Part shown: one piece after another, positions 19,087 through 34,425 of the stretch
Layout: every line of letters starts with the position of its first letter
Numbering within the stretch: the first letter of the stretch is position 1
NCBI GenBank assembly: GCA_034667685.1
Contig: JAXDQU010000085.1
Coordinates: 1 to 52,670 of the forward strand
DNA: 52,670 nt
Origin: Thermoplasmata archaeon
Lineage (GTDB): Archaea; Thermoplasmatota; SW-10-69-26; JACQPN01; JAJPHT01
Direction: 5' to 3'
The notes under the pieces: model-generated
Databases searched by the model: none
The model's input: only the letters and a program-made list of their open reading frames with translations
What the model was told of the DNA's origin: nothing
Translations under genes and position numbers: made by a program

Positions 19087-20307
19087 TCAGCTCGTGCGCG
19101 CGTAGTCGACCTCGGTGTACGGCGTCGGGCTCTGGCCCACGGGCAGGAGCTTCGTGCCGGTCTGCTTGACCCACGTCGCGTGGAGGTCGCCGGCCGGGCC
19201 GAACGCGAGGCCGATGAAGTCGCCGGCGAAACGGTTGTCGCCCAGGCACGTCACCGCGCGGCACATGGCGCCCGTGTGCACCGGGTCCGCGGTGAGCGTG
19301 TCGGTGCGCCACGTCGCGCCGTCCGTCGTGTGCGCGACCACGAAGCGCCACTGCGCGCCCGCGTCGTCCGCCGAGGTGGCGTTGGTCTCGTACCAGCCCA
19401 TGGCGACCTGGCTCGCGTTGCCCGCGGCGACGAAGGGCATGATGATCGTCTTGCCGTGGAACTCGAAGCGGTGGATCGTCCAGCGCTTCCCCTGGTCGGA
19501 CGAGGAGGCGACGGCGGGGATGCACGTGTCATTCACCGCGCTGTCGCACGTGGCCGCCCACCAGACGCCCGCGGCGTCGACGGCCATGCTCGCGGTGCCT
19601 GGCGCGCGCAGGTCGACGGGCGCGAAGCCCTTGTAGACGCCCTCGGGCGTGATCGTGCGCACGCCCCAGCCCGCGCCGCTGGGGTTGTCCGCGGCCTCGA
19701 CGATAACATGCTGCACGGGGTCCCACTGGAGGTCCTCGCCCTGGACCTCCTCGGTCCAGTCCATGCTCGTGATGCTCCACGACTGGCCCGCGTCGTGCGT
19801 CGCGGCGAACGTCGGGCGGTCGAGCTGCTCGCCGGTGACGAGGTACGCGTCCTTCGCGGTCGGGGCGACGAGCCACATGCGGTCGGTCGCGCCGGGCACG
19901 ACGATCGGGCTGCAATGCCACGAGGCGCCCTTGTCGGCGCTGTCGCACACGGCCGTCTCGCCCGCGTAGGGCCAGTCGAACGCGACGTACGCGCGCCCGT
20001 CGGGCGCCACCGCGAGCGCGCTGTCGGAAGCGTAGATCGGAAGCCCGCCGAACGCCGGGACCTCCTTGAACGTCGTGCCGTTGTCCGTGGACACGTAGAC
20101 GTGCTGGAGCGCCGCGATGTAGACGGTGCCGTCGGGCGCCACGCGGATCACGGGCTCGTTGCCGCTCTGGCCCGCCTTCACGACCTTGCCGAACTGCGGC
20201 GCGACCTTCCCGAGGTCGGGCAGCGAGGCGGTGGAGACGTCCTTGGCGGCGGGCGCGAGGCACCCCACGAGGAGGACGAGCAGGAGGGCAGCGGCGAGCG
20301 CTCTCAT
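19087..20307 (-). CDS. Lipoprotein, BNR/Asp-box (sialidase-like) beta-propeller
   Basis: Lipobox LVGC; STDNGTTF, SADKGASW, THDAGQSW, SSDQGKRW, TTDGATW. Confidence 0.88.
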   Translation of the reverse strand: MRALAAALLLVLLVGCLAPAAKDVSTASLPDLGKVAPQFGKVVKAGQSGNEPVIRVAPDGTVYIAALQHVYVSTDNGTTFKEVPAFGGLPIYASDSALAVAPDGRAYVAFDWPYAGETAVCDSADKGASWHCSPIVVPGATDRMWLVAPTAKDAYLVTGEQLDRPTFAATHDAGQSWSITSMDWTEEVQGEDLQWDPVQHVIVEAADNPSGAGWGVRTITPEGVYKGFAPVDLRAPGTASMAVDAAGVWWAATCDSAVNDTCIPAVASSSDQGKRWTIHRFEFHGKTIIMPFVAAGNASQVAMGWYETNATSADDAGAQWRFVVAHTTDGATWRTDTLTADPVHTGAMCRAVTCLGDNRFAGDFIGLAFGPAGDLHATWVKQTGTKLLPVGQSPTPYTEVDYARTS

Positions 20308-20355
20308 CCCCCGCGCAGCCCGGGGAAGGCAAGATAAGTCTTGTTGCGCTCCCCT

Positions 20356-20450
20356 GGCTCCGCATGCGGAGCGCGCGGCGAGCGCGGAGGCCGCGGCGGT
20401 GAGCAGAGCCTCGCAATCACCGCGTCCTCCGCGTCTCCGCATGCGGAGCC
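20356..20450. repeat. Tandem-inverted element with CTCCGCATGCGGAG termini (copy 2)
   Basis: GGCTCCGCATGCGGAG ... CTCCGCATGCGGAGCC with CGCGG units between; homologous to 7960-8053. Confidence 0.8.
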
Positions 20451-20495
20451 CGGGAGGCCCCAAAGGATTTCCCACGGCGAGCGGCTGCGCGCGCG

Positions 20496-23950: not shown

Positions 23951-24392
23951 CCCGTTCGACGAGGACCACGGGCGCGTCCGCCGCTTGGGCAACGACGCGC
24001 TCCGCTTCGCGCGCTGGTTCTTCCGCAGCAAGTACGCGCTGATGGCCGGCTTCCTGGGCGAGCTGGAGCAAACGCCCGAGGCGCGCGACGAGCGCGACCT
24101 GCGCCAGCGTTACTGCCGCGCGCTCCGGCACGCCATGCGCGTGCAGCGGGCGCGCGCCGTCGTGACGGTCCTCCTGGCGATGGGCGTGCTGACGGCCTCG
24201 TCGGCGGCCGTGCTCGACGCGCTGGCCGGCCCCGAGGGGCGCGCCCTCGTCCAGGACGTCGCGGCGTGGAGCGCGTCGATCAGCGTGCTGCTCGTGGGCC
24301 TGCGCCTCGCGTTCGACCGCTACCTGGGCCTCGTGGACGTCAGCGCGACGTTCCTCGCCATGCAGCTTGCGACCGCTCGTCCTCGAGCCTGA
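23907..24392 (+). CDS. Hypothetical two-TM membrane protein
   Basis: GC3-rich ORF with two hydrophobic helices; start uncertain. Confidence 0.6.
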   Translation: MPRTTEGTRAPHRRSPFDEDHGRVRRLGNDALRFARWFFRSKYALMAGFLGELEQTPEARDERDLRQRYCRALRHAMRVQRARAVVTVLLAMGVLTASSAAVLDALAGPEGRALVQDVAAWSASISVLLVGLRLAFDRYLGLVDVSATFLAMQLATARPRA

Positions 24393-26769
24393 GCGGGACC
24401 TCGGCGCCGAGGCGCTGCACGTGCGCGACGATCTCGATCGGATCGCGGCGCACCATCGAGAGCGTCGTGCGGGCCCGGACGACCTGGCCGTCCGCCGCGC
24501 GATATCGTTTCTCGATCTCCGCGCGCTCCTCGCCGGCCATGAGGCGCGCGACGGCCTCGCGGCTCGCGGGCAGGTCGTCCTCGTGGGTGACGTCCTCGAA
24601 GGTGAGCGCGCGCATCTCCTCCTCCGAGCGCCCCACCATGCGGCAGAAGGCGCGGTTCGCCGAGAGGAAGCGCAGCTCGGGCCCCACGATCACCACGCCC
24701 ACCGGCGCGTCGGCGAAGGCCCGCTCGAGGCGCGCCTGCGTCTCGCGCAGCGTCTCCTCGGCGCGCTTGCGCTGCGTGACGTCGCGGTAGTAGACGGAGA
24801 GGCCCTCCTCCGAGGGGTAGGCCTTGGCCTCGAACCACATGCCCATGCGCGGGTAGAACTCCTCGACGGAGACGACGACGTTGTCGCGCATCGCGCGGTG
24901 GTACTCGCGGTCGAAGCTCGTGCCCTTGAGGTCGGGGAACGCCTCCCAGAGCGAGAGGCCCACGGCGTCGCGCCCCGACTGGCGCATGCGCTGCGCGACC
25001 GGGTTCATGTAGATCAGGCGCCACTCGCGGTCGAGCGCGAAGAACGCCTCGCCCATCGACTCGTAGATGCGCAGGATGCGCTCGCGGGAGCGCCGGTCGG
25101 CCTCCTCCGCCGCGCGCCGCGCGGTGACGTCGCGCAGCACCGCGACGAGGTGCGGCCGCTCGCCGGCGCCTTGCAGCGGGCGCGCCATGATCTCGACGTC
25201 GAGCGGCGCGCCGTCCTTGCGCCTCGCGCGCGCGTGCGCCAGGCGGTCGGGCCCGTGCTCGCGCCGGCGCGCCTCGATCCAGCCCAGCGCGCGCTCGCGG
25301 TCCTCGTCGGCCAGGAGCGCCTGCAGGTCCATCGCGAGCGCCTCGCGCACGTCGTAGCCGAAGATCTCGCGCGCGGCCGGATTCCACAGGACGATGCGTC
25401 CGTCCGGGTCCGCGACCACGACCGCGTCGCCCAGGAGGTTGAACAGCGCGCCGATGCCCAGGTCGCCCGGCTGCAGGCGCGGGAAGAGATCGAGCTCGCT
25501 GCGGCGCAGGGGGAGAGGGGTGCCCAAGGCCCACGCGGCGTCGAAGGAGGCGCGCAGCGAGCGCAGCGCGGAGGGGTCGGTGGTGTGGACGACGATCTCG
25601 CTCTCGCCAGGGCGCGCGGCCAGCGCGAAGAAGCCCTCGCGCTCGTCGAGGAGCCAGTAGCGCGCCGCGAGCTGCGGCGTGAAGTGGCGCACCTCGATGC
25701 CCTCGGTGGCGCGCGCGAGGTCGTCGTAGGCGTCGACCGACGCGACGCGGTCGAAGTTGAGCAGCGCCGTGGCCTTGCCGCCGCGCTCGCGCAGGATGGC
25801 GGAGACGTCGTGGGCGTCCGCGCTGGGGAGCGAGACGGGGTTGCTATCCAGGAAGCGCAGCTCGCGGCCGCCGCGGGCCAGCGCCTCGCGGAACGCGCTC
25901 CACGCCTCCTGCGAGCTGGCGTACGTCTTCGTGAACGAGGGGAGCCGTCCCGCTTCGATCTCCTCGCGGCGCGCCTCGTAGGTGGGCGCGCGCTCCCAGA
26001 GGGGATCGAGGATCGCGCGGATGGCGGCGACCATCGCCTCCTGGTCGGTGAGGACGCCCGCGTCCTTCCCGCTCGCGAGGCTGGCGTCGTCCGGGACGAA
26101 GTGCGCGATGAAGGCGCGCGCGCCGTCGGCGACGAGGATGGCGACGTTGGCGCTCTGGTCCTCGTGCAGCTCGCGGCCCCGCACGCGCGCGACCTCGGCG
26201 AAGCGCGCCAGCGCGGGAAGCATCGCGGCCTCGATGGGGGCGAGCACGCGCGTCTCCACGCCGCGGGCCTTGGCGGCCGCGAGGGCGGGAAGGAGCGCCT
26301 CGGCGCGCGCGAGCGTGCCCGCGGTGGCAAGAAGGAGCAGGCTCTTCTGCGCGGAGTCGACGACGTCGATCTTCTTCGCCAGGACGTTGCGCCGGCCGCG
26401 CAGCACGGTGAAGGAGCCGCGCTCGCCCGCGTCGGCGTCTCCCACCACGCGGAAGAGGGCGGCCAGCTCCTCCCGCTCGCGCGCGATCGCATCCGCGGCC
26501 CGCGTGTGCTCCTCGTGGAGCCGCTGCAGGTGCTCCTCGAAGGGCACCGGCGCGAACTTCTTGGGGAACTCGGGCAGCACGACGACGAGCCCCTTCTCGT
26601 GGAGCTGCTCGAGGACGGCGTAGATCTTCGCCTGCGGGACCTTGGAGAGGCTGGAGACGTCGCGCGCCTCCGCGACGCCCAGGTCGAGGAGCGCGAGGTA
26701 CGCGCGCGCCGCGTACTCGGAAAGGCCGAACTCGCGCAGGCGCGCCGTGCGGTCGGGCGTGATCGGCGT
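24340..26769 (-). CDS. TrmB-family regulator with three C-terminal PAS domains; no canonical start codon
   Basis: Frame is open upstream of the tracked GTG (26580) through LREFGLSEYAARAYLALL...SKVPQAKIYAVLEQLHEKGLV (TrmB wHTH); PAS motifs WNPAAREIFGY, YMNPVA, ANRAFCRMVG; in-frame TGA at 26790-26788; ACG at 26769 proposed as start. Confidence 0.85.
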   Translation of the reverse strand, partial: TPITPDRTARLREFGLSEYAARAYLALLDLGVAEARDVSSLSKVPQAKIYAVLEQLHEKGLVVVLPEFPKKFAPVPFEEHLQRLHEEHTRAADAIAREREELAALFRVVGDADAGERGSFTVLRGRRNVLAKKIDVVDSAQKSLLLLATAGTLARAEALLPALAAAKARGVETRVLAPIEAAMLPALARFAEVARVRGRELHEDQSANVAILVADGARAFIAHFVPDDASLASGKDAGVLTDQEAMVAAIRAILDPLWERAPTYEARREEIEAGRLPSFTKTYASSQEAWSAFREALARGGRELRFLDSNPVSLPSADAHDVSAILRERGGKATALLNFDRVASVDAYDDLARATEGIEVRHFTPQLAARYWLLDEREGFFALAARPGESEIVVHTTDPSALRSLRASFDAAWALGTPLPLRRSELDLFPRLQPGDLGIGALFNLLGDAVVVADPDGRIVLWNPAAREIFGYDVREALAMDLQALLADEDRERALGWIEARRREHGPDRLAHARARRKDGAPLDVEIMARPLQGAGERPHLVAVLRDVTARRAAEEADRRSRERILRIYESMGEAFFALDREWRLIYMNPVAQRMRQSGRDAVGLSLWEAFPDLKGTSFDREYHRAMRDNVVVSVEEFYPRMGMWFEAKAYPSEEGLSVYYRDVTQRKRAEETLRETQARLERAFADAPVGVVIVGPELRFLSANRAFCRMVGRSEEEMRALTFEDVTHEDDLPASREAVARLMAGEERAEIEKRYRAADGQVVRARTTLSMVRRDPIEIVAHVQRLGAEVPLRLEDERSQAAWRGTSR

Positions 26770-26826
26770 GTGAAGCCCCCGGAAGGATCAACGCGCGAGG
26801 GGCAGATAGCCTTGGTGGCGCACGCC

Positions 26827-28926
26827 TTACCTCAGGACCTTGGCCAGCTCTTCGGCGAAGACGCGCGCGGTGGCGACGCGCTCGTTGGGCCGCTCCGCGA
26901 GCGCGCGGGCCAGGAGCGCGGTGAGCGCGGGCGGCACGTCGCTGCGCAGGATCACCGGCGCGTGGGCGCCCGGCGGCGCGCCGTAGAGGCACTCGTGGAG
27001 CACGGCCGCGCACGCGTACACGTCGGCGCGGCGGTCGCCCTGCGAGAGGCCCGCGCGGACCTCCGGCGCCATGTAGAAGAGCGTCCCGGCGCGCGCGGTG
27101 GAGCCCACGTCGAGCACGGTGCGCGTGGAGAGCGTGGGCAGCGCGATGCCGAAGTCCGCGACCTTCGGGACGCCCTCGCCATTGAGCAGGATGTTGCTGG
27201 GCTTGATGTCACGGTGGACGATGCCCGCGCCGTGCACGGCCTCGACGCCGCGCAGCACGTCGACCACGAGCGGCACGGCCTCGCGCCAGGGGAGCGTGCC
27301 CTTCGCGCGCAGGTGGTCGGAGAGGCTGCCGCCCTCCAGGTACTCCATCACGATGATCGGAGAGCCCTTGCCTTCGACCACTTCCTCGACGGCGACGACG
27401 TTGGGGTGGCGCACCTTCGCCGCGAGCCTGGCCTCGCGCAGCACGGCCTCGCGCGTCTGCGGGTCCTGCTGCCACTGCTGGAGCGGCTCCTTGAGCACGA
27501 CCAGGCGGTCGCGCTGCCGGTCGCGCGCGAGCCACGTGCGCCCGCCGCCGCCTTCCCCGAGCAGACGCAGCCGCTCGAACGCCTCGTGCGCCTTGCGGTC
27601 GCGGGCGACCACGACGCTGCTCTTCGCGTAGTGGCGCAGCACGCGGTCCTCCGCCTCGCTGATGCCGAAGCGCTCGCGCAGCGCGGCGAGGAACTCCGCG
27701 TCCTCCTCCAGCGACTCGCGCGCGAAGGAGGCCTCCAGCGCGGCGCGGTACGCGTCGATGCGCTGGCCGTAGACGGCGTCGTCGTCCGTGCGCGCGGGCT
27801 CGCCGCTCGGGACGCCGAAGAGCCGGCGCGTGAGGCGGATGCTGGGAAGGATCGAGACGCCGAGGACCGTGAGGGCCGCGAGGACGGGGAGGGTGGGCGT
27901 CTCGGACACGAGCGTCCCCGCGCCGAAGACCGCCGCGCCCCCGGCCGTCGCGACCACGGCGCCGCCGGCGTTGGCCGCCCAGCGCGTCGCGCGTTGGCGG
28001 AAGTCGTAGTAACGCCACTGGGCGAGGCCGACCGCGATGACGCCCACCGCCGCCAGCCGCCAGAGGCCGACCGTGAAAAGGTCCTGGCTGACGGTCACGT
28101 TGATCGCGCCCTCGACCAGGCCGAGCGCGCCGGGGAGCAGCATCCAGCGGCTCACGCTCCGAAGCGTCTGCCCCTTCGCGGGGTCGGTGGTGTGCCGGCC
28201 GTCGCGCAGCGAGGTGAAGCCGGCCCAGCCCACCACGCCCAGGAGGGCGACGAACATCGTGCAGTAGAGCCACGTCGTGGGAGAGCCCGCGCCCTCGACG
28301 ATGGCGCCCCCGTAGAAGATCGCATACTTGCCCGTCAGCGGCGCGAGGAAGAGGCTCAGGCCGATGAGGAGGATCTTGTCGCGCGAGCGCGTGCGGGGCG
28401 TCGGCGAGGCGCGCAGGCTCACGACGAGCGCGACGAACGTCAGGCCGAACGCCGCGTAGATGGGCAGCACGATCAGGGGCGCGTAGAGCGGGCCGGGCGT
28501 GAAGACCAGGATGCCGTTGTCCGGCGAGACGTGGATGTCCGCAAGGTAGGCGGACGAGTCGAGCAGGACGAACAGCGCGTTGAGGAGCGCGATGCCCGCC
28601 GCGAGGTTACGCACCCCCGACCATCGGCCGTGGCGCTCGCCCTCCGCCTGGCTCGCGGCGAACGCGAGGAGCAGGTACGGAAGCGGGATCTGGAACGCGA
28701 GGAAGAGCCCGTAGAGCCAGCGCGCCGAGGCGGTGGACGTCGCGAAGCTGGTGCTGTTCCCGAAGGTGATCTGGAGACCCCAGACGAGGCCGAAGAGGCC
28801 GAAGGCGAGCGCGCCGCGTGGACGAGAACGCCCGCCGACCAGACAGAGCATGCCGACGACGGCGACCGCGATCCCGCTCGCCATCGCCCAAAGGCTTCCC
28901 GCCGTGAGGATTCCCGTGCCAGCCAC
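26827..28926 (-). CDS. Multi-TM Hanks-type Ser/Thr protein kinase
   Basis: About 9-10 hydrophobic segments, then LGEGGGG, VVLKE, HPNVV, HRDIKPSN, DFG, GTLFYMAPE, DVY; GGAGG RBS before GTG. Confidence 0.95.
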   Translation of the reverse strand: MAGTGILTAGSLWAMASGIAVAVVGMLCLVGGRSRPRGALAFGLFGLVWGLQITFGNSTSFATSTASARWLYGLFLAFQIPLPYLLLAFAASQAEGERHGRWSGVRNLAAGIALLNALFVLLDSSAYLADIHVSPDNGILVFTPGPLYAPLIVLPIYAAFGLTFVALVVSLRASPTPRTRSRDKILLIGLSLFLAPLTGKYAIFYGGAIVEGAGSPTTWLYCTMFVALLGVVGWAGFTSLRDGRHTTDPAKGQTLRSVSRWMLLPGALGLVEGAINVTVSQDLFTVGLWRLAAVGVIAVGLAQWRYYDFRQRATRWAANAGGAVVATAGGAAVFGAGTLVSETPTLPVLAALTVLGVSILPSIRLTRRLFGVPSGEPARTDDDAVYGQRIDAYRAALEASFARESLEEDAEFLAALRERFGISEAEDRVLRHYAKSSVVVARDRKAHEAFERLRLLGEGGGGRTWLARDRQRDRLVVLKEPLQQWQQDPQTREAVLREARLAAKVRHPNVVAVEEVVEGKGSPIIVMEYLEGGSLSDHLRAKGTLPWREAVPLVVDVLRGVEAVHGAGIVHRDIKPSNILLNGEGVPKVADFGIALPTLSTRTVLDVGSTARAGTLFYMAPEVRAGLSQGDRRADVYACAAVLHECLYGAPPGAHAPVILRSDVPPALTALLARALAERPNERVATARVFAEELAKVLR

Positions 28927-29017
28927 CGCGACGCCTCCCTCGCTACGTCCCCAGGGACTTGATGATCATGACAAAATGGGATGTTAAGCATTCCCGAACG
29001 GCAGCCCCGCCGTTGCG

Positions 29018-29227
29018 TCAGCTTCCCAGACAGGTGGGCGCGCAGCCGGGGCCGCCCCAACTGGCAGAAGGAGTCGAGTTCGTCGAGGTCGTGGATGGGC
29101 TCGCGCTCGTGGTGGTCGTCGTGCTCGACGACGTCGTTTCCGAAGGATCGGCCGACGCCGTCGGGAGTCCGGCCACGACCAAGCCGACGAGCACCACGAG
29201 GATGCCAATCTGTTTGGCTCGGTTCAT
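29018..29227 (-). CDS. Small secreted peptide (69 aa) ending WGGPGCAPTCLGS
   Basis: Signal peptide MNRAKQIGILVVLVGLVVAGLPTASA, Ser/Thr spacer, Cys-pair motif; own BRE/TATA-like element upstream. Confidence 0.8.
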   Translation of the reverse strand: MNRAKQIGILVVLVGLVVAGLPTASADPSETTSSSTTTTTSASPSTTSTNSTPSASWGGPGCAPTCLGS

Positions 29228-29263
29228 CGAACAGCCTCACGAATCGATCTGTTCGCCCTCGGC

Positions 29264-29277
29264 CTATACTTTTCGCG
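29264..29277 (-). promoter_or_regulatory. BRE/TATA-like promoter of the small peptide gene
   Basis: Minus strand CGCGAAAAGTATAG about 37 nt upstream of ATG 29227. Confidence 0.55.
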
Positions 29278-29293
29278 CGTGCAGCAGAAAGGC

Positions 29294-30133
29294 TTAGCAG
29301 GTGGGGGCGCAGCCCGGACCGCCAAGGACGCCGATGAGATAGCCCACGTCGCCGGCCGCGCCCGGCGCGCGCGAGGCGCTCACGGTGTACGTGCCCGTGC
29401 TGGGAAGGTTGAACGTGACGAGCTGGCCGGGCTGGATCGTGCCCAGGATGCTGCCATCGGGCGCGAACAGGGTGAGCTGGACGGGCGAGGCGGTGCTCGC
29501 GAGGCTCAGCGTCAGGGCGCTGCCCGCGGCGTCGGAGCCCAGCGAGTAGTAGTCCGCGAGATCGGGAAGTCCGTTGCCCAGGCTGCCCACGTGGCCACCG
29601 ATGCAGGCGAGACCCTGGGCCGGCGTGGCGTGCGCGAGGTCATTGCCCCCGTCGGCGCCGGTGCCGGCGTCGCCCGCGCCGGCGTCGGGGATGCCGGTCG
29701 CGCCCACGGAGAATCCGTAACGGTTCCAGGCGCCGGCCGCGGTGCTCTGCGCGCCGAGCTGGACGCCCTGCAGGTCGGGAACGGCCAGGCCGCCCGAGGC
29801 CGAGCCGCCGTCCACCGAGCGCATCGTCGCGCCGGACGTGCCGGCCGAGGAGAGGGCGTTGAGCGTGATCGCGCTCGCGTAGGCGCCCGCGTAGGCCGCG
29901 CTCACGCACTGGGGCGTGGCGACGCTCGCGGAGACGGCGTACCAGTCGACGTCGCCGGAGTAGAGAGAACCCGTGTACGCGCCGAAGCCCGGGAGCAACA
30001 GCGCGCTGCCCACCGTGTTCCCGGCATCGCGACCCGTGCTCGCATCGCCGCGGTCATTGTCCGCCACCGCGTCCGCCACGACGCAGAGCGACACCCCGAG
30101 GACCAGGATCGTCAAGATCGAGCGCTGGCTCAT
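29294..30133 (-). CDS. Secreted protein with two PPC-like repeats, ending GGPGCAPTC
   Basis: Signal peptide; DASTGRDAGN...DVDWY and DAGTGADGGN...DLADYY; GTYTVS; terminal VLGGPGCAPTC*. Confidence 0.85.
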   Translation of the reverse strand: MSQRSILTILVLGVSLCVVADAVADNDRGDASTGRDAGNTVGSALLLPGFGAYTGSLYSGDVDWYAVSASVATPQCVSAAYAGAYASAITLNALSSAGTSGATMRSVDGGSASGGLAVPDLQGVQLGAQSTAAGAWNRYGFSVGATGIPDAGAGDAGTGADGGNDLAHATPAQGLACIGGHVGSLGNGLPDLADYYSLGSDAAGSALTLSLASTASPVQLTLFAPDGSILGTIQPGQLVTFNLPSTGTYTVSASRAPGAAGDVGYLIGVLGGPGCAPTC

Positions 30134-30489
30134 GGCCTCCACCGGCTGCCGCATCCTCCTTGCCCGGTATCTGTAGTTTGCGCCTGGATCGTAGTCGCTT
30201 CAAGCGGCAGCCCCCGCCGACCCGACTAGGACGTCCGCCCAAAGGTTGAAATTCCAGAGGCAGGTCCCGCCCCGGCCATGCGAGTCCTGCCGCGCCTCCC
30301 CCGGCGCTCGGCCCTCCACATGGCCCACGAGCGCAAGACGCTCCGCGCGTGATCCCCATGGCCCGCCACGTCCTCCGCATGTGCCACGAGCAGCCCACCC
30401 GACGCGGGCTGCTGTCCCGCCTGCGGCGAAAGGCTCGCTGAAGCGCACGTTCCGCTCCTCGGCGATCCTGCTCGGGCCGAGAGGGCGGC

Positions 30490-30590
30490 GCAGGTCAGGT
30501 GACTAGACACCTTCTCGGGCGACGGCAGGTCAGGTGACCAGACACCTTGCGGCGCGCTGCGGCTCACCTGTCTAGTCACCTCACCTGACC
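30490..30590. repeat. REP/BIME-like cluster: two 24-bp direct repeats plus inverted partial copies
   Basis: GCAGGTCAGGTGACYAGACACCTT at 30490 and 30525; TGTCTAGTCACCT and TCACCTGACC at 30569-30590. Confidence 0.8.
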
Positions 30591-31361
30591 CGCGGCCAAG
30601 CCCCGGCGCCCCGAAGGCCAGAATGCCCCGCCACGAGGCCCCTCGCGGGATGAATGCCCCTGGGGGCGCTTTCGCTCTCTTCCCGTTGCGCCATCGGCTT
30701 AAGCCCCGACGCGCAGCCTTGGCCGGAGACTGGTATCGAATGCCCAGCCCGTGCCAGCACGGGCCAGGCCACGCGCGTGGAACGCGCGTCAGCCTGCGCC
30801 CCGCGCCGACGGCCCGCGGGCACCCCGTGACAGCGGGGTGCGCCGATGGCCGCTGAGATCCGCCCCGCCCCACGCAGCGGCCGCAAGCACAAGGCGCTCA
30901 AGATGACCGCCCTGGAAGCCCGCCATGGCCCCGCGCGCCCCATCGTGCGCCGCTGGCTCGCAAGCTTCCTGATCGAGATGGTCCTGCGCTGAACGGCACC
31001 GCCGCGCCGCCGCTTCGCCCCTTCGCCGCCCACGCGCGCTTGATATCGGCCCCGCGCCCAGCTCGGGCCGATGCACGCTCTCCTCCCGCTCCAAGCCGAC
31101 CGCCCGCGCCGCCCCGCGCCGCGCCGCGGACCCGAGGGGCCCTGGTGGCCGCGCCGCTGAGCCCGCGCCCGGCGCCGCCTCGGTGCACCCGGCCACGCCT
31201 TGCGCCACCAGGCGCCGGGTGGCCACGCGCGGCCCCACCTTGCCCAGCTTCGCTCTAGAGTGCTGCACCAGGAAGCGCTTCTTCTCGGCCGGCGCCTCGT
31301 GGATAGGGACGTCGCCGCGTGCGGGCCAATACCTATAAGCGAAGCGCCCTCTGCGCGCCTC

Positions 31362-32726
31362 ATGCCCGCGTCCGCGCCGATGACGCTCCCCGAGAAGATC
31401 CTTGCCCTGAAGGCGAAGAAGGCCCACGTCCGCCCGGGCGAGATCGTGGAGGTTCCCGTGGACGTGGCGATGGCGCATGAGGCGTGCGAGCAGCTCATCC
31501 GTCCGTTTGAGCAGATGGGCGCGACCGAGGTGTGGGACCGGAACAAGATCGTGATCCCGATCGATCATTGGGTCCCGGCGTCGTCCGAGTCTTCGGCGCG
31601 CATGCACAACAACATCCGGAAGTTCGTGCAGAAGCACGACCTGCCTCACTTCTACGACGTGGGCCGTCAGGGCATTTGCCACCAGATTCTCGTGGAGGAG
31701 GGCTTCGTGCTGCCGGGCGACCTCGTGACGGGCACCGACTCGCATACCAACATGGCGGGGGCGCTGGGCGCGTTCGCGTGCGGCATCGGTCCCACCGAGC
31801 AGGCCGCGGTGTTCGCGACGGGCGAGGTGTGGCTCAAGGTCCCCGAGACGATCCGCGTGGACGTCACAGGCAACCTCACGTTCCCCGTGAGCGGCAAGGA
31901 CATCATCCTCGATGCGCTCCGCCAGCTCACGACCGAGGGTGGCGCGTACAAGGCGATCGAGTTCGGCGGGAGCGCGATCGAGAACCTGGAGATGTACCAG
32001 CGGCTCACGCTCTCCAACATGACGACGGAGCTCGGCGCGAAGGCGGGCATCATCGCGCCCGACGCCGAGACGTTCCGCTACCTGGCGGCGCTTCCGGAGA
32101 TCAAGAACGGCCGCGCGGCGCACGTGCGCGACCATGCCGACCTGCGCCCGGACGCGGGCGCGCGCTACGAGCGCACCATCACGATCGACGGCGACCGGCT
32201 GGAGCCTCTCGTGGCGGCGCCGCAGAGCCCCGACAACGTCCACAAGGTCAAGGACACCGACTCGGGCCACGTGGACCAGGTGTTCATCGGCTCGTGCACG
32301 AACGCGCGCCTGGAGGACCTGCGCGTGGCGGCCTCGATCCTCAAGGGGCACAAGGTCCACAAGGGGACGCGCCTCGTGGTGTTCCCTGCGAGCACGCGCA
32401 TCTACCTGGCCGCGCTGCGCGAGGGCATCGTCGAGACGATCACGATGGCGGGCGGCTCGTTCAACACGTCGTCCTGCGGCGCGTGCTTCGGCGGGATGGG
32501 CGGCGTGCTCGACGCGGGCGAGGTCTGCGTCTCGACGAGCAACCGCAACTTCCCGGGCCGCATGGGCCACATCAAGAGCAAGAGCTACCTCGTGAGCCCG
32601 GCCACCGCGGCGGCCACGGCGATCCAGGGCAAGCTCACCGACCCGCGCACGCTCGTCTCCGAGACCGACGCTCGCAAGCTCGCGGCCGAGGCGCGCAAGC
32701 CCTTCGTGCTGCCTGCCCTTCCGTAG
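31362..32726 (+). CDS. leuC: 3-isopropylmalate dehydratase / homoaconitase large subunit
   Basis: MTLPEKIL, DH, GICHQ, GTDSHT, IGSCTNAR, CGACFG, STSNRNFPGRMG; CCTATAAG about 23 nt upstream. Substrate not resolvable. Confidence 0.88.
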   Translation: MPASAPMTLPEKILALKAKKAHVRPGEIVEVPVDVAMAHEACEQLIRPFEQMGATEVWDRNKIVIPIDHWVPASSESSARMHNNIRKFVQKHDLPHFYDVGRQGICHQILVEEGFVLPGDLVTGTDSHTNMAGALGAFACGIGPTEQAAVFATGEVWLKVPETIRVDVTGNLTFPVSGKDIILDALRQLTTEGGAYKAIEFGGSAIENLEMYQRLTLSNMTTELGAKAGIIAPDAETFRYLAALPEIKNGRAAHVRDHADLRPDAGARYERTITIDGDRLEPLVAAPQSPDNVHKVKDTDSGHVDQVFIGSCTNARLEDLRVAASILKGHKVHKGTRLVVFPASTRIYLAALREGIVETITMAGGSFNTSSCGACFGGMGGVLDAGEVCVSTSNRNFPGRMGHIKSKSYLVSPATAAATAIQGKLTDPRTLVSETDARKLAAEARKPFVLPALP

Positions 32727-33060: not shown

Positions 33061-34425
33061 GTGCGCGTCCTCGCCGTCGCCCTGCTGATCCTCGTTGCCG
33101 GCTGCGCGGCGCCCGCCGCGACCGTGCCCACGCCCGCGCCCACCGTGACGAAGGCGTCGGACCCGTTCCATCCGGCGAACGGCAGCGCGGTGGCGGACCT
33201 CGCGGCGCCCAGGCCCGCGCCCGACGTGCTGGTGGCGACGCCCGGCTTCGCGGAGCCCAACGTCGCCGCGGCGTACGATGGCAGGACGCTCTACGTGGGC
33301 AACCCGGGCGGCGTGTGGCGCAGCGACGACGCGGGCAAGACGTGGGCCGCGCCGAAGAACGCCAACCTCGAAGGGGGCGGCGATGGCGATATCGCGGTCG
33401 ACGCCAACGGCACCGTCTACTACCTCGGCCTGCTTGGCAAGGAGGGGCGCACGATCCCGTTCATGCGCAGCGCCGACCAGGGCGACACGTGGACCGACAT
33501 CAAGGACGTCGCCGCGGGGAGCGGCAGCGACCGCGAGTGGATCGACAGCACGCCCGATGGCCACCTCGCGGCGACGTGGCGCGGCAAGACCGGCATCGAG
33601 TTCAACGCCTCGCAGGACGGCGGCGTGACGTGGCTTCCGAGCGTCGTGACCGTGGGTCCGGATGGCGACGGCGGCCCCGTCGTGCACGATCCGGTCACCG
33701 GCGCGCTCGCCATCAGCGTCATCGACCAGGCCGCGGCGGCCGGCACGGACGCGCCCGTCGTGCACGTCTACGTCTCGCGGGACGGCGGGCGGACGTGGAC
33801 GGGCCACGACACGGCGAAGCTGGGCCGCACGAGCCCGGTCGAGCCCAACGGCTACGCCTCCGACTTCCCCGTGCTATCATTCGACGGCGCGGGCACGCTC
33901 TACCTGGTCTATTCGGGGGACGCGAGCGCGCTGCCCGGGGGCGCCACGCCGCCCGAGGAGGCCGGGCGCTACGGCGTCTTCCTCCAGGCCAGCAAGGACC
34001 TGGGCGCGACGTGGAGCGCGCCCAAGCTCGTCTCCGACCCGACGAAGGACGCGCGCTTCCCGTGGATCGCCGCGGGCGCGCCGGGCCGCCTCGCCGTCGT
34101 GTGGTACGAGAACGTCCGCGGCACGCCCGGCGAGGCCGTGCCCGACGAGTGGAACGTCAGGATGTGGGAGTCGATCGACGGGGGCGCGAAGTCCATCGTC
34201 GCGACGCTCACCGCCTCGCCCAACCACACGGGCTCGCTCTGCACGAGCGGCACGGGCTGCCTCGCGGCGGACCGCAGCCTGCTGGATTTCTTCGAGGTCG
34301 CCGTCGGCCTCGACGGGCAGCCGGTCGTCGCCTTCGCGCAGAGCACGCTCGGGACGGGCCTCGGCGTCGCGGTCAAGCCCACCGAGATCCACTTCGTCAC
34401 CGTGGCTGGGACCAGCCTCCTCTGA
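33061..34425 (+). CDS. Lipoprotein, BNR/Asp-box (sialidase-like) beta-propeller
   Basis: Lipobox VAGC; SDDAGKTW, SADQGDTW, SQDGGVTW, SRDGGRTW, SKDLGATW; paralog of 19087-20307. Confidence 0.9.
   Translation: MRVLAVALLILVAGCAAPAATVPTPAPTVTKASDPFHPANGSAVADLAAPRPAPDVLVATPGFAEPNVAAAYDGRTLYVGNPGGVWRSDDAGKTWAAPKNANLEGGGDGDIAVDANGTVYYLGLLGKEGRTIPFMRSADQGDTWTDIKDVAAGSGSDREWIDSTPDGHLAATWRGKTGIEFNASQDGGVTWLPSVVTVGPDGDGGPVVHDPVTGALAISVIDQAAAAGTDAPVVHVYVSRDGGRTWTGHDTAKLGRTSPVEPNGYASDFPVLSFDGAGTLYLVYSGDASALPGGATPPEEAGRYGVFLQASKDLGATWSAPKLVSDPTKDARFPWIAAGAPGRLAVVWYENVRGTPGEAVPDEWNVRMWESIDGGAKSIVATLTASPNHTGSLCTSGTGCLAADRSLLDFFEVAVGLDGQPVVAFAQSTLGTGLGVAVKPTEIHFVTVAGTSLL

Follow-up and report, generated by a model that had tools for sequence, protein, structure and literature searches.

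Secreted proteins sharing a Cys-x-Pro-x-Cys tail beside a membrane-sensor Ser/Thr kinase in Thermoplasmatota: a candidate transmembrane signalling module

The window analysed here, the whole stretch of 52,670 nucleotides of contig JAXDQU010000085.1 from a Thermoplasmata archaeon, carries on its minus strand two secreted proteins with a common C-terminal tail, a kinase with a membrane sensor and a regulator:

29294..30133, minus strand: secreted protein of 279 aa with a pair of PPC-like domains and the C-terminus GGPGCAPTC
29297..29323, minus strand: the nine tail codons of the long protein (GGPGCAPTC)
29264..29273, minus strand: TATA-like AT-rich element AAAAGTATAG, 37-46 nt 5' of the ATG of the small ORF
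29018..29227, minus strand: 69-aa tail-only mini-protein in which a signal peptide and a Ser/Thr-rich spacer precede WGGPGCAPTCLGS
29030..29056, minus strand: the nine tail codons of the mini-protein, with 4 synonymous differences from the long-protein copy
26827-28926, minus strand: kinase of 699 aa (Pkinase E=2.3e-43)
27832..28926, minus strand: kinase residues 1-365, sensor domain of ~11 TM helices whose N-terminus lies outside and whose outer loops are short
27592..27831, minus strand: kinase residues 366-445, helical juxtamembrane linker on the cytoplasmic side, conserved (YRAALEA... motif)
26827..27591, minus strand: kinase residues 446-699, Hanks-type Ser/Thr kinase domain, catalytic motifs complete
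24340..26580, minus strand: regulator of 746 aa, three PAS domains and a TrmB-like N-terminus below cut-off

The two tail-bearing frames are as the sequence-only reading had described them, 279 and 69 aa long with a common GGPGCAPTC end whose copies differ at four of nine codons (GGT/GGC, CCG/CCC, GCC/GCG and TGC/TGT), all synonymously. The long protein ends in VLGGPGCAPTC directly before the stop, and an upstream ATG at 30154 is possible, which would give 286 aa. Its earlier label of PPC-like appears supported only below curated thresholds: Pfam PPC matches it with E=0.002 and 19.4 bits (cut-off 25.9), profile comparison matches domain 2 to 5iku, a collagen-binding domain of collagenase (E=2.8e-5), and the ESM features give PPC at 0.93. 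It shares with PPC (PF04151) and the clostridial collagenase collagen-binding domain a tandem domain pair with a D-x-D-W-Y type motif; unlike them, it scores under the Pfam cut-off, has no attached protease, adds a DAG-x-G-x-DA motif and carries one invariant Cys per domain in addition to the CxPxC tail. Cys76, Cys177, Cys275 and Cys279 are invariant across the PPC-like family, and because long proteins carry the two further Cys (C76 and C177), other disulfide patterns would be possible in them. The N-terminus of the mini-protein, MNRAKQIGILVVLVGLVVAGLPTASA, is signal-peptide-like, and its mature part comprises 43 aa, of which 24 are Ser or Thr, with the stop directly after WGGPGCAPTCLGS. A GAGG (SD-like) lies 11 nt 5' of its ATG, and AAAAGTATAG is possibly the small ORF's own candidate promoter; the pattern, picked post hoc, has one match in the window, and AT-rich elements with equal spacing in genomes G001 and G003 bring the number to three of seven small ORFs.

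The kinase satisfies Hanks-type Ser/Thr kinase assignment (Pkinase 148.9 bits, cut-off 31.7) and has the catalytic motifs GEGGGG (457-462), VVLKE (K479), HRDIKPSN (571-578), DFG (591-593) and APE (620-622). A hydropathy scan gives ~11 hydrophobic segments, with all outside loops at or below ~20 aa, in agreement with its earlier description as a multi-TM kinase with intact motifs and no large ectodomain. Sensor residues G287, W289 and R290 are kept in 24-25 of 25 kinases, and no obvious complementarity was seen between the short outside loops and the tails. The sensor domain is perhaps distantly HisKA_7TM-like, as suggested by ESM features (0.94). PF16927 searched against ten TM domains of the family gave 27.7 and 23 bits as its best two scores, under the gathering cut-off of 28.6; the window domain had no Pfam match even at E up to 10, and a PF16927 search of its own genome did not match the window kinase. 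HisKA_7TM is listed among the sensor domains of archaeal histidine kinases in the part of PMC5847659 available. Both would be N-terminal polytopic sensor modules, and one relative of the window domain (L044 in G014, E=5e-9) is fused to PAS-HisKA-HATPase_c as a histidine kinase, the remaining members being attached to a Hanks kinase or standing alone; unlike HisKA_7TM, the window sensor has ~4 more TM helices and is fused to a Hanks kinase. In the excerpts of the literature on HisKA_7TM available, no ligand or partner protein was found described. Class III/IV lanthipeptide synthetases (LanKC/LanL) likewise have a kinase domain next to the gene of a small precursor peptide rich in Ser, Thr and Cys; unlike in those systems, the peptide here has a Sec signal peptide, and the spacers of G011 and G012 are not rich in Ser/Thr. 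The NCBIfam synthetase models match the kinase domain only, with 69 bits against a cut-off of 650 and 42.2 against 575, and there is no lyase or cyclase domain.

On the output side, the earlier assignment of a TrmB-PAS regulator stands for its PAS part, with three matches, and falls short for Regulator_TrmB (17.9 bits, cut-off 22.2). Such a regulator adjoins the kinase in G001 and G005 too, and in relatives an ArsR-HTH+FHA gene comes after the kinase (E=3e-16 to FhaB). The window has no adjacent HTH-FHA gene; the best ortholog lies on contig C17 and is 67% identical to the post-kinase HTH-FHA gene of G005. The output of the kinase would be HTH-FHA or TrmB-PAS regulators. The mycobacterial PknH-EmbR pair is a Hanks kinase with an FHA DNA-binding partner. 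The S. tokodaii kinase STK_15650 with the FHA DNA-binding STK_00829 is another such pair, according to the part of PMC5007285 available, and the HTH-FHA gene after the kinase in relatives resembles this arrangement. Unlike in these pairs, where the input of TM sensor and tail proteins has no counterpart, the adjacent regulator of the window is TrmB-PAS and its closest HTH-FHA ortholog is on another contig. Heme-copper oxidase genes also lie near the locus in this genus, a genus-level synteny absent from the loci of other families.

The tail itself is rare. GGPGC..[ST]C is confined to these two ORFs when all 3,481,428 bases of the genome are translated in six frames; C.P.C occurs 19 times in 1,159,880 residues (4704 coding-like ORFs) and falls within the last 35 residues in one of the 2484 ORFs that reach 100 aa, which is the long-protein gene itself, the background of CxxxC tails in this genome being 12 of 2484. 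When the pattern G-P-[DE]-P-x-x-C-x-P-x-C was searched in the DNA of five other genomes, all eight matches were tails of these proteins, and the reversed-pattern control gave none, so that the tail is not found scattered over unrelated proteins. Tails sharing a locus are identical across 8-16 residues with synonymous differences only in eight genomes (codons differing 9/11 in G001, 8/12 in G005 and 8/16 in G017), and this identity despite many synonymous differences places the tail under protein-level selection, as had been argued from the window's two copies. From genome to genome, including within one genus, the tail sequences vary.

The linkage of tail and kinase was surveyed in 23 Thermoplasmatota genomes with 50 sensor-domain genes, 46 of them with upstream sequence, an upstream partner being an ORF of the same strand whose final 35 aa include CxxxC and which ends at most 1300 nt upstream. 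Such a partner precedes 39 of the 46 sensor genes, bearing out the expected adjacency to a TM-kinase; the gap is mostly below 70 nt, and the motif is CxPxC in 34 of the 39. At L024 and L055b the tail protein lies directly downstream of the sensor gene instead, and four of the 46 (L023, L040, L044 and L052) have none on either side. Even divergent kinase paralogs, with 25-30% TM identity, have homologous partners, which align with domain 2 and the tail, CxPxC included (hhalign 97.3%, E=2.4e-11). These comparisons point to a tail-kinase linkage that is tight and ancient. The hosts of the module are a group of soil archaea.

Tail-only ORFs with a signal peptide are found in seven genomes of three families (the window genome and six others), so that the small ORF proved to be conserved. 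For example, the locus of G002 holds a 69-aa tail peptide and the kinase only, a minimal pair, and a query with the PPC protein gave no match in this genome, which is 88% complete. G008 encodes a 180-aa protein with four tails. None of the observations named beforehand as speaking against the sequence-only reading (a tail missing from homologous loci or found on many proteins unlinked to TM receptors, a small ORF not conserved or expressed) was made.

A further feature of the locus is its uneven divergence, seen when the window genome (G000) is compared with G003 of the same genus; G018 and G020 provide a second pair.

28250..30133, minus strand: hypervariable cassette relative to G003, DNA homology limited to a 222-nt stretch of 67% identity

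The flanks are colinear DNA of 76-83% identity, and the DNA boundary of the cassette is the start codon of the PPC gene. Between G000 and G003, identity is 86% for aconitase, 88.5% for CoxI, 90.6% for the catalytic and 89.6% for the juxtamembrane part of the kinase, against 43.6% for the TM sensor and 30% for the PPC protein; within the kinase it rises stepwise near residue ~370. Because the flanking genes and the cytoplasmic part span 75-91% whereas the sensor falls to 44% and the PPC protein to 30%, this stretch is a hypervariable cassette. Between G018 and G020 the flanks are 80-87%, the cytoplasmic part 83% and the TM domain 48% identical, and 10 of 12 tail residues are the same although the TM domains have diverged this far, which indicates that the tail need not drive fast TM evolution. 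Tail similarity follows TM similarity when the catalytic domain is controlled for (partial Mantel r=0.39, p=0.004; 16 kinase-tail pairs, among which related genomes are not independent) and the converse test gives r=0.05 (p=0.36). The partial Mantel signal could stem from the tail gene being physically linked to the TM-coding end of the kinase gene. Tail proteins and the TM half of the kinase form one hypervariable block, as a co-evolving ligand/receptor pair would give.

Secreted tail proteins encoded beside a kinase, with tail and sensor evolving together very fast, look like a ligand-receptor signalling pair of an undescribed kind, and no prior description of such a tail/kinase system was found in the literature. 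We put at roughly 0.5 the probability that secreted partners dock, by way of the tail, onto the membrane sensor of the kinase. The ligand/receptor interpretation put forward earlier is therein supported in part, by the linkage, the selection on the tail and the hypervariable block. A close likeness is to staphylococcal agr, in which, according to the portion of PMC10482373 available, a hypervariable region that takes in the peptide gene and the sensor-coding half of the receptor gene defines allelic specificity groups, much as the block described here spans the tail-protein genes into the kinase TM half. Alike are also a small secreted peptide (AgrD/AIP) with a five-residue ring as its active end, the ring being predicted here, and a polytopic membrane sensor (AgrC) without a large ectodomain. 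In contrast to agr, the proposed receptor belongs to the Hanks Ser/Thr kinases rather than the histidine kinases, a disulfide instead of an AgrB-made thiolactone would close the ring, the peptide has a Sec signal peptide and its tail recurs on a folded PPC protein, and the hosts are archaea, with no sequence relationship. Pfam scans of the four core and seven neighbouring genes gave no AgrB, so that both receptor and processing gene set the locus apart from agr-type cyclic-peptide quorum sensing.

The tail might instead serve as a dedicated C-terminal tag for sorting or anchoring, cleaved, for instance, or joined to a lipid through Cys, which fixes the proteins at the surface, with the kinase co-regulated or its TM domain acting as processing or anchoring partner. 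Signal peptide, Ser/Thr-rich stalk and C-terminal motif do resemble the stalk-and-anchor regions known from archaeal surface proteins, and the tails of one locus are uniform, as substrates of one enzyme would be. According to the available part of the preprint by Haft (10.1101/2023.06.07.544157), some sorting signals of secreted proteins contain an invariant Cys, share one signature throughout a genome and are often encoded next to a dedicated membrane partner, and known tags are tripartite, with motif, TM helix and Arg cluster. The tails described here end 0-8 residues past the last Cys with no hydrophobic segment or Arg cluster following, unlike PGF-CTERM, MYXO-CTERM, CGP-CTERM and similar signals as presented in that part. 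A general tag would be expected on many proteins, whereas carriers number just 2-5 per genome, all adjoining the kinase, and close relatives have different tails. The aligned kinases conserve neither Cys, His nor an EE motif in the TM domain, and this neighbouring membrane domain shows no CPBP/Rce1-like or archaeosortase-like signature, so that a cognate sortase, exosortase or CPBP-type enzyme is not seen in it. This alternative, raised already in the sequence-only reading, is weakened to the point of being unlikely.

Slightly more doubtful is a redox or metal (e.g. copper) site, by which the proteins would report extracellular redox or metal state to the kinase, or a disulfide that merely stabilises. 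CxxxC is the sole invariant Cys pair in the single-domain partner family, and tail-only and multi-tail proteins have no Cys beyond those of CxPxC, which makes the pair a self-contained unit; the nearby oxidase genes and the PAS-rich regulator after the kinase would also fit. The oxidase genes are, however, confined to synteny within the genus, and such a site explains neither why the 3-11 residues before the Cys pair are the same throughout a locus but differ from one close relative to the next nor why the sensor half diversifies along with them.

There is also a slim chance that the Gly/Pro-rich tail is a ligand of PPC domains, building a surface matrix by chaining or cross-linking, with small and multi-tail proteins as caps or hubs and the kinase monitoring envelope state. 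PPC domains are related to collagen-binding domains, binders of polyproline-II-like peptides, and domain 2 has the profile match given above; tails such as GPPGQG, GPEPPP and GPDRPGP, the four-tail protein of G008 and the place of the PPC protein within the hypervariable block would suit this idea. Against it, the minimal pair of G002 does without a PPC protein by the query described above, and in ancient single-domain partners CxPxC comes right after the last strand, without a Pro-rich linker.

Very improbable is a virus-related module with a defence kinase, its exposed proteins and sensor loops diversifying under viral pressure: the exposed parts are hypervariable and the kinase domain matches the PADLOC PD-T4-6 and mad6 models (E down to 7e-60) and NCBIfam MADS6, but these matches are limited to the generic catalytic domain (residues 441-698; 128.9 bits, NCBIfam cut-off 460), PADLOC matches neither PPC protein, small peptide nor TrmB-PAS regulator, the matched tails are left unexplained and the output genes are transcription regulators. 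Just as improbable is that a duplicated PPC gene has decayed into the small ORF, leaving a signal peptide fused to a tail and no function, with the long protein alone mattering; it is absent as a predicted protein from a set of 5.8 billion proteins, its spacers are of low complexity and not conserved in sequence, and family f6 genomes lack it, but signal peptide and tail are intact in all seven genomes, the tail stays identical to that of the long protein through up to 8 synonymous changes, the peptide is the sole partner in G002, and equally spaced TATA-like and SD-like elements recur in three of the seven.

For docking of the tail onto the sensor, the steps may be pictured as follows. The tail, a Gly/Pro-rich stretch followed by Cys-x-Pro-x-Cys, is borne by a two-PPC-domain protein and, in many genomes, by a mini-protein that has nothing but a signal peptide, a spacer and the tail. 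Once Sec has exported these proteins, a disulfide between the two Cys would close a five-residue ring, and the outer face of the TM sensor would receive the tail; G-x-W-R, conserved at the end of TM9 that faces outside, is a candidate contact. A docked tail would hold the PPC 'antenna', which has no anchor of its own, at the kinase, and the tail-only peptide would take the same site as agonist, competitor or diffusible signal. Occupancy of this site would alter kinase activity, and the signal would pass to phospho-Thr-reading ArsR-HTH+FHA regulators and/or the TrmB-PAS regulator; binding, disulfide, direction of signalling and a physiological cue are what we infer here. There is about an even chance, judged from sequence comparison, that these loci encode a lineage-restricted archaeal transmembrane signalling module in which the tail proteins would be the cognate extracellular partners of a sensor-Hanks kinase.

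The locus consists of four genes on the minus strand of the window, in the following order of transcription:

29294-30133 (-): long protein of 279 aa, secreted, with two PPC-like domains and the end VLGGPGCAPTC
29018-29227 (-): small ORF of 69 aa, a signal peptide plus a 43-aa Ser/Thr-rich mature part with the end WGGPGCAPTCLGS, 66 nt past the long-protein gene
26827-28926 (-): kinase of 699 aa, 91 nt past the small ORF
24340-26580 (-): TrmB-like regulator with three PAS domains, 246 nt past the kinase

The assignment of the kinase as a Ser/Thr kinase with intact catalytic motifs, made in the sequence-only reading, is borne out: toward the C-terminus lies a Hanks kinase in which every catalytic motif is present; residues 1 to ~365 carry about 11 hydrophobic segments joined by short outside loops. 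The genome (3.48-Mb assembly, 71% GC) has DNA occurring in soil metagenome runs, and Candidatus Thermoplasmatota archaeon is among the names of its relatives (4 of 47 named). No Rfam family was found in 24000-32000. A TATA-like element at 29264-29273, unique in the window, lies near the small ORF, and two relatives (G001 and the same-genus G003) have AT-rich elements at equal spacing, which hints at a putative promoter of the small ORF, the pattern having been chosen post hoc. Around the locus, a 48-aa Arg/Lys-rich ORF at 30846-30992(+), upstream of an aconitase-family gene and found at the same position in three related loci (L009, L014, and L021), may encode a leader peptide or some small protein. 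On either side of the region lie secreted BNR/sortilin-like repeat proteins, paralogs of each other, at 19087-20475(-) and 33061-34425(+), the latter with a lipobox-like LVAGC near its N-terminus.

The tail shared by the long protein and the small ORF is rare. In a six-frame translation of the whole genome, GGPGC..[ST]C occurs in these two ORFs only; the simpler C.P.C has 19 occurrences among 1.16 million residues, and of the 2484 ORFs that are 100 aa or longer, just one carries it near the C-terminus, the long-protein gene. A 5.8-billion-protein set contains three long-protein homologs, all of which end in C-x-P-x-C. Matches were present in 19 of 41 related genomes at E <=0.01 (10 of those 19 at E <1e-10), and the sole invariant cysteines of a 17-member alignment are C76, C177, and the tail pair C275/C279. 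Conservation of the small ORF, on which the original proposal depended, is supported by tail-only ORFs (signal peptide, spacer, and tail) in 7 genomes and 3 families, where they follow or replace the long gene (G000, the genome of the window, and G001, G002, G003, G005, G011, and G012). Their spacers are Ser/Thr-rich in five genomes, but those of G012 and G011 are Pro/Glu-rich or mixed, so that conservation does not extend to the spacer. Other architectures include tail proteins of 135 and 148 aa in G017 and a 180-aa secreted protein of G008 (L015:6593-7135(-)), with neither a PPC domain nor a family match, in which each of four repeats ends in a Gly/Pro-rich stretch plus CxPxC. A G-P-[DE]-P-x-x-C-x-P-x-C pattern searched in the DNA of five other genomes gave 8 matches, all 8 being tails of these proteins, and its reversed control gave 0 matches in the same genomes. 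NCBIfam and PADLOC returned nothing for the long PPC protein or the small peptide; New_glue and LpqN matches of the latter, under cut-offs, were rejected as low-complexity Ser/Thr artefacts. Elsewhere in the genome, a 68-aa ORF (C112:8496-8699(-)) with a signal-peptide-like N-terminus and a Cys/Pro-rich C-terminal half (7 Cys) is a further candidate secreted peptide, small and Cys-rich, with no relationship to the tail family.

As to the protein parts, the long protein is PPC-like by ESM features (0.93), its Pfam score being under the cut-off, and has a profile match to the collagenase collagen-binding domain (E=2.8e-5). Among 1.84 billion proteins, 83 represent the transmembrane (TM) domain of the kinase; nearly all are ~700 aa long, and about ten of the 83 are stand-alone proteins of around 425 aa. 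The copy in the window has no Pfam match; ESM features point to HisKA_7TM, and two of ten family members score 27.7 and 23 bits against this profile (cut-off 28.6). In a G014 relative (L044:973-3072(+)), the same domain is fused to PAS, HisKA, and HATPase_c, thus forming a histidine kinase and not a Ser/Thr kinase, with no tail protein within the 972 nt upstream. On these sequence comparisons, we read the domain as a divergent, portable sensor of putative HisKA_7TM type, HisKA_7TM being listed as an archaeal sensor domain in the available text of PMC5847659. The genome's only PF16927 (HisKA_7TM) match (20.4 bits) is a stand-alone 397-aa membrane protein outside the window (C106:146582-147772(+)), which terminates with the juxtamembrane helix motif found in the kinase but has neither a kinase domain nor a tail protein upstream; its contig runs out in a dinucleotide repeat. 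Downstream of the kinase, most other families have an ArsR-HTH+FHA gene, of which the genome holds 11 paralogs on 11 contigs (closest, C17:34848-35531). Eleven such predicted regulators in one 3.5-Mb archaeal genome suggest extensive phospho-Thr-dependent transcription control. Pairing of a kinase with an FHA regulator is documented for Sulfolobus in the available text of PMC5007285.

The adjacency of tail proteins to TM kinases extends well beyond the window. The sensor domain is present in 19 of the 21 genomes searched of the class and in 23 genomes of a 401-genome phylum sample (four of the 23 outside the class), often as 2-4 paralogs per genome. Essentially all matches gave 50 sensor-domain genes, of which four lack upstream sequence; in 39 of the remaining 46, as the sequence-only reading would predict, a same-strand ORF with CxxxC within its last 35 residues ends just upstream, and 34 of these 39 are of the CxPxC type, against a background for CxxxC near the C-terminus of 12 in 2484 ORFs, the counts coming from related genomes, so that events are not independent. 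At L024 and L055b the tail protein lies directly downstream of the sensor gene, L041b shares a tail-protein gene located between two kinases, and L023, L040, L044, and L052 have one on neither side. A kinase-alignment search of genome contigs for related loci confirmed none, and the PPC alignment contains no stretch of sufficient conservation for such a search. Divergent kinase paralogs have single-domain partners whose homology to the long protein covers its domain 2 and tail (hhalign 97.3%, E=2.4e-11), with the CxPxC columns coinciding, and therefore the tail-kinase pairing is ancestral and not convergent. Because the G002 locus consists of peptide and kinase alone, tail plus kinase constitutes the minimal pair. 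One locus, L055 (G246:C10, 1713-10999), carries three modules in tandem. The first combines two CxPxC proteins with a stand-alone TM protein of 431 aa, the second has a kinase followed by a CxPxC protein, together with an HTH-FHA gene, and the third is a further CxPxC protein with a kinase.

Comparison with the same-genus G003 reveals a hypervariable cassette within an otherwise colinear locus. The neighbors are 75-88% identical and the catalytic and juxtamembrane parts of the kinase 90.6% and 89.6%, whereas identity is 43.6% in the TM domain and 30% in the PPC protein; along the kinase it steps up from 26-66% to 80-100% around residue 370. DNA homology ends at 28250 and restarts at 30134, one base past the PPC start codon, the sole homology in this gap being 222 nt with 67% identity. 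The pattern recurs in a further same-genus pair, G018 and G020 (flanks 80-87%, cytoplasmic part 83%, TM 48%, PPC proteins 62-63%), and here 10 of 12 tail residues agree despite the 48% TM identity. Foreign origin of the cassette was rejected, its GC of 0.67-0.75 being ordinary beside a genome value of 0.71. In a comparison of 16 kinase/tail pairs, the similarity of tails tracks TM similarity with the catalytic domain controlled (partial Mantel r=0.39, p=0.004), and the converse test gave no association (r=0.05, p=0.36); physical linkage could be an alternative source of this signal.

Tails vary between genomes, even inside one genus (GGPGCAPTC, GPPGQGCRPAC, PPGSPCRPGC, SPGCKPAC). Within one locus, they are identical over 8-16 residues with synonymous codon differences only, the exception being a Ser/Ala difference inside the ring in the second long protein of G005.

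Identical tail codons compared, and number that differ (all differences synonymous)
G000, long protein and small ORF: 9 compared, 4 differ
G001, three pairs: 11 compared, 9, 7, and 4 differ
G005: 12 compared, 8 differ
G017, across two contigs: 16 compared, 8 differ
G003: 8 compared, 3 differ
G012: 8 compared, 3 differ
G018: 14 compared, 3 differ
G011: 9 compared, 1 differs

In an 81%-identical homolog, 4 of the 10 last aligned columns differ, numbers too small for testing. Four DNA runs that were examined gave contigs only; those of two other soil runs match the small ORF identically or nearly so, and no variants of the tail codons were found.

The linkage, exclusivity, and antiquity of the pairing, the matched tails, and the co-diversifying sensor half are shown by the sequence comparisons. 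To explain them, we favor, at about even odds, a model in which the tail, probably closed by a disulfide into a ring of five residues, would dock with the TM sensor at its outer face, so that the anchorless PPC protein would be held there, the tail-only peptide would occupy the same site, and the kinase would signal onward to its FHA and TrmB-PAS regulators. Two observations make the ring the likely form: tail-only and multi-tail proteins carry no Cys besides this pair, and in the single-domain family no other Cys pair is invariant. Across 25 kinases, G287, W289, and R290 are conserved at the outer end of TM9, and the TM domain has no conserved Cys or His; in the absence of such a Cys, an intermolecular disulfide between tail and kinase was rejected. 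Charge complementarity between acidic linkers and outside loops was looked for and not seen, and a lanthipeptide was rejected from an NCBIfam scan of the kinase and comparison of the tail proteins. Less likely rivals to tail docking include a dedicated sorting tag, but known Cys-bearing C-terminal sorting signals are tripartite in the sources available, unlike these tails; the others are a redox or metal site, a matrix of tails and PPC proteins, a surface system driven by viruses, and a small ORF that is merely a remnant. The closest working analogy to tail docking is staphylococcal agr, with its five-residue ring peptide, polytopic sensor, and hypervariable region spanning the peptide gene and sensor half (available text of PMC10482373), but no parts are homologous. 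An archaeal agr analogue built from unrelated parts, in which the tail-only peptide with its disulfide-closed C-terminal ring, diffusible or displayed on the surface, is read by the 7TM-like Ser/Thr kinase sensor as private pherotype-like signaling or kin recognition, the cassette setting mutually incompatible specificity groups among close relatives with several orthogonal pairs per genome, appears unlikely.

Our literature search, supplementary material aside, found no earlier description of the tail-kinase module, nor, in the texts available, of a ligand for the HisKA_7TM sensor domain. The small peptide has no match in the 5.8-billion-protein set; such ORFs are absent from public protein predictions, and this gene class is therefore currently invisible to annotation. 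To our knowledge, no archaeal Ser/Thr kinase has a described extracellular ligand, whether protein or peptide. For Hanks-kinase signaling in archaea, the module thus far provides a concrete candidate input that can be tested, with a synthesisable 10-residue tail, natural cognate and non-cognate variants in close relatives, and a defined output via HTH-FHA and TrmB-PAS regulators. If the match between tail and sensor is real, it would be a first archaeal example of specificity groups in which ligand and receptor diversify together, and would show how anchorless secreted proteins can be retained at the surface of such cells.
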